Source: an uncultured Desulfurococcales archaeon
GTDB lineage: Archaea; Thermoproteota; Thermoprotei_A; EX4484-217-1
Reading direction: 5' to 3'
NCBI GenBank assembly: GCA_964526225.1
Contig: CAZGLL010000006.1
Span: 1,328-65,327, forward strand
DNA: 64,000 nucleotides
In this document: positions 12,747 to 42,762 of the stretch, piece after piece
Layout of the letters: each line of letters begins with the position of its first letter
How positions within the stretch are numbered: the stretch's first letter is position 1
Notes under the pieces: generated by a model
The model's input: the letters and a program-made list of their open reading frames with translations, nothing else
Told to the model about the DNA's origin: nothing
Database searches by the model: none
Program-made: the position numbers and the translations under genes

Positions 12747-12834
12747 TGGTGCGGGGGGTGGGATTTGAACCCACGCAGGCCTACGCCATCGGGGCCTAAG
12801 CCCGACCCCTTTGTCCTAGCTCGGGCACCCCCGC
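12747..12834 (-). tRNA. tRNA-Leu(TAG), long variable arm, CCA encoded
   Basis: GCGGGGG acceptor, TCGGG-CT-TAG-GC-CCCGA anticodon arm, GTGGG-TTCAAAT-CCCAC T arm, ends in ACCA. Confidence 0.96.
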
Positions 12835-42531: not shown

Positions 42532-42597
42532 TACAGCTCACTTCGAGTTTTCCTCAGAAATATTTATTGGCGGAGGTAGAATATGAAATATTATTAG

Positions 42598-42651
42598 ATG
42601 ATGAAGCTCGAAAGGTCAGAGATAGTCCATGAAGAACCCGCGCAGGACTGA
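42598..42651 (+). ncRNA. C/D box guide sRNA (probable tRNA targets)
   Basis: ATGATGA(C)-AGCTCGAAAGGT-CAGA(D')-GATAGTCC-ATGAAGA(C')-ACCCGCGCAGGA-CTGA(D), with canonical 12-nt guides. Confidence 0.85.
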
Positions 42652-42690: not shown

Positions 42691-42762
42691 TGCAATGATG
42701 ACCTCGGGGCTCGAGGCAATGATCCGCTTATGGAAATGACGGAGTAGTCCCATCGCTGAGCA
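42691..42762 (+). ncRNA. Extended C/D box sRNA with internal hairpins
   Basis: TGC-A-ATGATGA(C)-CCTCGGGGCTCGAGGCA-ATGA(D')-TCCGCTTATGGA-AATGACG(C')-GAGTAGTCCCATCG-CTGA(D)-GCA. Confidence 0.7.

Follow-up and report, generated by a model that had tools for sequence, protein, structure and literature searches.

The mechanism by which box C/D sRNAs guide 2′-O-methylation is textbook knowledge, and several described guides resemble the sRNA reported here to different degrees. Two that have been tested experimentally, P. abyssi sR47 (C34 of tRNA-Leu(CAA)) and a Sulfolobus guide for U34 of tRNA-Gln, share with it the mechanism, the +5 rule and action in trans, but differ in their targets and guide sequences. 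In Pyrobaculum, sR51, sR26, sR27, sR45 and sR46 are predicted guides for tRNA position 34, one of them for tRNA-Glu (Lui et al., 2018, PMC6009581), and our sRNA is likewise a C/D guide predicted for position 34, Glu included. The Glu guide of Pca-sR51, however, precedes box D, matches the CUC isoacceptor (C34) and is accompanied by an unrelated second guide. Because our sRNA has neither a Glu(CUC) guide before box D nor the sR51 partner guide, we reject its membership in the sR51 family; Pca-sR51 is a functional analogue from a different family. A P. furiosus guide predicted for G47 of tRNA-Leu(UAA) (snoRNAdb) comes from a different phylum and is likened to ours by target alone, the same nominal tRNA-Leu position; Wolff et al. 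(2020, PMC7668247) report that this methylation was not detected by mass spectrometry.

Two orthologs are already catalogued as expressed sRNAs (Dennis et al., 2015, PMC4644070), namely Sac-sR114 of S. acidocaldarius (24,853 reads) and IHO-sR306 of I. hospitalis (1,500 reads). Both were entered without an rRNA prediction in a study that mapped rRNA targets. The 10-nt cores of both Sac-sR114 guides are identical to those of our sRNA, in the same order and in a single copy, which places the two in one family. IHO-sR306 has the same D guide core, but its D′ guide fits U34 of tRNA-Ser(UGA) rather than that of tRNA-Glu(UUC). Searching the literature by guide sequence returned nothing relevant, and searching for sR114 by name returned nothing beyond PMC4644070. 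The mechanism and the orthologs are known, but we found no tRNA target assigned to Sac-sR114, IHO-sR306 or their family in the papers covered.

The sRNA gene lies in the 64,000-nt stretch of DNA that was analysed as a whole (the window), from an uncultured Desulfurococcales archaeon. Inspection of the sequence identifies a canonical box C/D sRNA on the plus strand at 42598-42651, 54 nt from box C to box D, with boxes and guides where the preliminary description had located them. Boxes C, D′, C′ and D follow one another in order within the usual 50-70 nt, and the guides stand directly before D′ and D. The features discussed below are as follows.

42556-42569, plus strand: AT-rich stretch about 30 nt upstream of the sRNA, a possible archaeal BRE/TATA promoter as judged by eye
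42598-42604, plus strand: box C, RUGAUGA consensus, kept in homologs
42605-42616, plus strand: D′ guide, 12 nt, complementary to positions 30-40 of tRNA-Glu(UUC), with +5 nucleotide A42612 opposite U34
42617-42620, plus strand: box D′, CAGA, one mismatch to consensus (CUGA in about half of the orthologs)
42629-42635, plus strand: box C′, one mismatch to consensus
42636-42647, plus strand: D guide, 12 nt, complementary to the variable-arm end and T-stem 5′ strand of tRNA-Leu, with +5 nucleotide C42643 opposite G47
42648-42651, plus strand: box D, CUGA
42691-42762, plus strand: second C/D-like RNA, a separate gene 39 nt downstream, with its best guide matches in 16S rRNA
12747-12834, minus strand: tRNA-Leu(UAG), with the D-guide site at 12769-12780 and G47 at 12776; one of four tRNA-Leu copies with the site

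The sRNA gene sits between a gene for a KaiC-like ATPase and a Cys-rich ORF, both on the minus strand, and the Cys-rich ORF lies downstream of the tRNA splicing endonuclease gene (endA). The host genome encodes fibrillarin (E = 7e-108), the methyltransferase of C/D RNPs. An uncultured Thermoprotei MAG, AUK086, is the nearest named record with an exact shared 24-mer. The second C/D-like RNA has a long middle with a hairpin and finds its best matches near positions 237 and 317 of the 16S rRNA of G004, a genome of the same family; the DNA search used for the sRNA finds it conserved only within the genus.

A family model built from 15 homologs and searched across 151 genomes of the class recovers members in 145, representing 15 of the 16 families sampled and mostly in single copy. 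The model search found no member in four genomes of family f3, and it returned a few matches in other classes of the phylum. Its matches coincide with the published coordinates of Sac-sR114 and IHO-sR306. The neighbourhood of KaiC-like ATPase, Cys-rich ORF and endA is common to this genome and one from another family (G021), whereas the S. acidocaldarius ortholog has different neighbours. That the locus is a chance or decayed C/D-like sequence, functionless in this genome, is scarcely credible. Such a reading could draw on the failure of any Rfam family to reach its gathering score (the best, sR5, attains 22.3 bits against 40 and is driven by the boxes), but the four boxes and two guides are all intact here, boxes and guides are conserved across the 15 families while the spacers diverge, and the orthologs are highly expressed. 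One genome carries a second family copy (L119, G143:C50:665-770) with A8 in its D guide and a diverged D′ guide. In family f33, an sRNA (L266, genome G254) with a D′ guide fitting C34 of tRNA-Glu(CUC), and a D guide on the tRNA-Leu variable arm in a shifted register, is a possible distant relative.

Low-threshold ARAGORN predictions were too noisy for the tRNAs, and a T-arm search was used instead. The tRNA-Glu(UUC) that the preliminary description had proposed as the partner of the D′ guide is indeed present, on contig C13 of the genome, with U34 at C13:37946 and a 19-nt intron at 37/38. Positions 2-11 of the guide form 10 continuous Watson-Crick pairs with C31-C40, a further G-U pair is available at position 1, and the +5 nucleotide A42612 pairs with wobble U34, as had been anticipated. 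This duplex exceeds the nine continuous Watson-Crick pairs, one of them at +5, that the strict criterion asks for. When genomic tRNAs and both strands of the 1.6 Mb genome are scanned, tRNA-Glu(UUC) is the sole perfect match apart from the antisense of the sRNA itself, and just 4 of 3000 shuffled D′ guides match the tRNA set equally well. tRNA-Glu(CUC) and tRNA-Asp(GUC) pair everywhere but at +5, which suggests that the guide would select its isoacceptor at the modified base itself. U34 of tRNA-Glu(UUC) is very probably the target of the D′ guide.

The first three bases of the tRNA-Glu intron are identical to those of exon 2, and precursor and spliced tRNA hence pair alike with the guide (-19.7 and -19.2 kcal/mol, respectively) and are indistinguishable as substrates. 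This repeat occurs in eight of nine canonical Glu introns seen. We considered it as a special feature and rejected this, since 5 of the 13 canonical introns of the genome, judged by eye, have it likewise. Many relatives have no Glu intron at all, and it is therefore not required. In family f7, tRNA-Glu has A37 with no matching change in the guide, leaving one mismatch there.

In genome G007 (L160 / L033, G007:C31:7690-7740), the tRNA-Glu(UUC) intron has a T-arm-like stretch with complementarity to the core of the D guide, and both guides could therefore bind one and the same precursor. Two genomes of family f18 (L263 in G256 and L265 in G164) have a different sRNA with a Glu(UUC)-type guide in front of its box D; the one in G164 is located about 110 nt downstream of a tRNA-Leu(CAA) gene.

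Some lineages retain D′ positions 2-5 but have changed the remainder of the guide. The I. hospitalis D′ guide forms 12 of 12 pairs (one G-U) with tRNA-Ser(UGA) and has two mismatches to tRNA-Glu(UUC). The guide of G039 pairs at 8 positions with its own tRNA-Ser(UGA), with G-C at position 39 in place of the C-G of I. hospitalis. Those of G090 and G135 fit best to tRNA-Arg(UCG) and tRNA-Arg(UCU), respectively, the latter still pairing with tRNA-Glu through two G-U pairs. In each of these four cases the +5 rule points to wobble U34. Several other divergent D′ guides have no clean target, and that of G060 has no clear one.

The D guide pairs through positions 2-12 with 12769-12780 of the minus-strand tRNA-Leu(UAG), forming the 11 pairs already described, with the single G-U at position 8 (opposite U50). 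Its +5 nucleotide C42643 pairs with G47 (12776 in the window), the nucleotide before C48, again as first proposed. The proposal that the sRNA targets two tRNAs, one of them encoded in the window, is supported, with the refinement that the D guide is not specific to the tRNA-Leu of the window: the site is present in all four tRNA-Leu copies found (UAA, GAG, UAG and one fragment), each with the G-U at U50, and tRNA-Ser(GCU) is an additional candidate with a single mismatch, at position 4. Because the guide acts in trans, the location of one tRNA-Leu gene 30 kb away in the same window means nothing. With 6 Watson-Crick pairs, a G-U and 4 more Watson-Crick pairs, the duplex in this genome falls below the nine continuous Watson-Crick pairs of the strict criterion and fits only a relaxed one; nine or more are formed by the D guides of the orthologs in G142 (with tRNA-Leu) and G098 (with tRNA-Ser(UGA)). 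Shuffled D guides match the tRNA set equally well in 176 of 3000 cases (5.9%), so that the match by itself is weak and the assignment leans on comparative data. No better target than tRNA-Leu is found in the assembly, and G47 of tRNA-Leu is a likely target of the D guide. tRNA-Ser was rejected as the main target, since the invariant A4 mismatches C46 of tRNA-Ser here and in many relatives, and is kept as a secondary one; possibly, some Ser tRNAs with this mismatch are modified as well. In G001 and G004 (L134 and L137), tRNA-Leu(UAA) carries an intron within the variable arm, immediately 5′ of the D-guide site.

A target for one or both guides in rRNA or another stable RNA missing from the assembly is very improbable. 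The 16S and 23S rRNAs are indeed absent from it, and 5S rRNA, SRP RNA and RNase P RNA are covered only as far as assembled. Regardless, in the complete 16S and 23S rRNAs of G004, which carries an ortholog, neither guide finds more than 6-7 contiguous pairs. We accordingly rejected rRNA as a target, and no better rRNA match displaces the tRNA sites; the absence of an rRNA prediction for either published ortholog points the same way.

In the proposed mechanism, the sRNA would bind L7Ae, Nop5 and fibrillarin and methylate tRNAs in trans, with the D′ guide producing Um34 in tRNA-Glu(UUC) and the D guide Gm47 in tRNA-Leu, as well as in tRNA-Ser where the variable arm ends alike. Guidance of both Um34 of tRNA-Glu(UUC) and Gm47 of tRNA-Leu is probable, and we infer both that the ribose carries these methyl groups and that the sRNA is needed for them.

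An unlikely alternative is that the D′ guide alone methylates, at U34 of tRNA-Glu, while the D guide pairs with long-arm tRNAs unproductively (to assist folding, for example) or has an unrecognised target, and a stand-alone enzyme acts at position 47. About 80% of the tRNA-targeting sRNAs of Pyrobaculum use one guide (PMC6009581), which favors such an arrangement. The substitution pattern bears on both readings. Among the 88 members inspected by sequence, which come from related, non-independent genomes and were found with a model that favors similar guides, the +5 nucleotide is invariant in both guides. In the D guide, a change to U is seen at positions 7, 9 and 10 but in none of the 88 at the C of +5, as expected if +5 must be a Watson-Crick pair, which counts against unproductive pairing. 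The 23 substitutions found at D positions 7-10 all preserve the duplex with tRNA-Leu (C to U facing G, or G to A facing U50), a count to be read with the knowledge that transitions such as C to U are common. In the D′ guide, seven A-to-G changes fall at position 6, where they create a G-U pair, and none at position 5.

Position 8 of the D guide cuts both ways. Of the 88 members, 81 retain G8 opposite U50, and this, together with family f35, whose D guide mismatches its own tRNA-Leu with no compensatory change, speaks for a D guide that does not methylate. In the other seven members the nucleotide is A8, which pairs perfectly with U50. Families f6, f9 and f13 contain A8 variants, as does f42 outside the class, and tRNA-Leu has U50 in the genomes checked of all four, so that A8 perfects the Leu duplex in at least three class families; this and the lack of a better target in the assembly count against unproductive pairing. 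G8 is likely retained because it can pair with U50 as well as with C50, the latter being present in complete target sites among the Ser and Leu tRNAs of Sulfolobaceae-like genomes. A compensatory change at D position 2 was considered and rejected: the guide varies there in f7, g2 and G001 while tRNA-Leu stays constant, position 2 is also unpaired in f9, and no covariation is seen at this position.

Published mass spectrometry of S. acidocaldarius tRNAs touches the same nucleotide. In tRNA-Leu(UAA) and tRNA-Ser(UGA), a dimethylated (+28 Da), RNase T1-resistant G47 was assigned as m2,2G, made by an unknown enzyme (Wolff et al., 2020). According to the authors, the spectra cannot place a methyl on the base versus the ribose, and T1 never cleaves at Gm whereas m2,2G can be cleaved (PMC7668247). 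Positions 2-11 of the Sac-sR114 D guide pair with both of these tRNAs, with +5 on the modified G47, and by our mass calculation the T1 fragments of Leu(UAA) and Ser(UGA) carry three and two methyl equivalents, respectively. Gm47 plus m5C48, or m2Gm47, would have the same mass and would fit equally well as m2,2G47. Fragmentation into c and y ions is suppressed 3′ of a 2′-O-methyl residue, and this would blur an assignment between positions 47 and 48. The alternative of a stand-alone enzyme at 47 is favored by the published assignment, a base modification, and by A47 of S. acidocaldarius tRNA-Leu(CAA), which is also methylated (PMC7668247) despite its mismatch to the Sac-sR114 D guide at +5, as would fit a guide-independent enzyme. 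The alignment of Wolff et al., in a garbled machine-read form in which unanalysed regions are indistinguishable, marks neither G47 of Leu(GAG/UAG/CAG) nor U34 of Glu(UUC). We found no evidence for Um34 in tRNA-Glu in published data, and the main text of the OTTR-seq paper does not mention position 47.

The fullest reading, which we regard as plausible and advance tentatively, is that this sRNA is an old, class-wide guide dedicated to tRNAs, with both guides active on different tRNAs. The D guide would write Gm47 on long-arm tRNAs, the orphan 'm2,2G47' being Gm47 plus m5C48 (or m2Gm47), and the D′ guide would always mark wobble U34, with the isoacceptor switched in some lineages from Glu to Ser(UGA) or Arg. 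Archaeal guide repertoires turn over fast, with fewer than two-thirds of predicted targets conserved even within Pyrobaculum. The retention of this guide pair in 15 of 16 families suggests strong selection on these two tRNA methylations. Whereas most tRNA-targeting sRNAs use one guide, here both appear to be used. For an orphan sRNA that is highly expressed in the genetically tractable S. acidocaldarius, the assignment offers a pair of candidate targets, and for a published G47 modification of unknown origin a candidate cause.

Two other tRNA loci were noticed in the genome that carries the sRNA. On the minus strand of contig C4 (L243, G000:C4:41100-42300), about 900 nt separate the two halves of a tRNA-Gln(CUG), whose 17-nt trailer and leader are perfectly complementary, making this a candidate for a recently split tRNA or one with a very long intron. 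On contig C13 (L244, G000:C13:1050-1140), the 3′ part of an initiator-type tRNA-Met has a GC-rich leader and no adjacent 5′ half, and is possibly another split tRNA.
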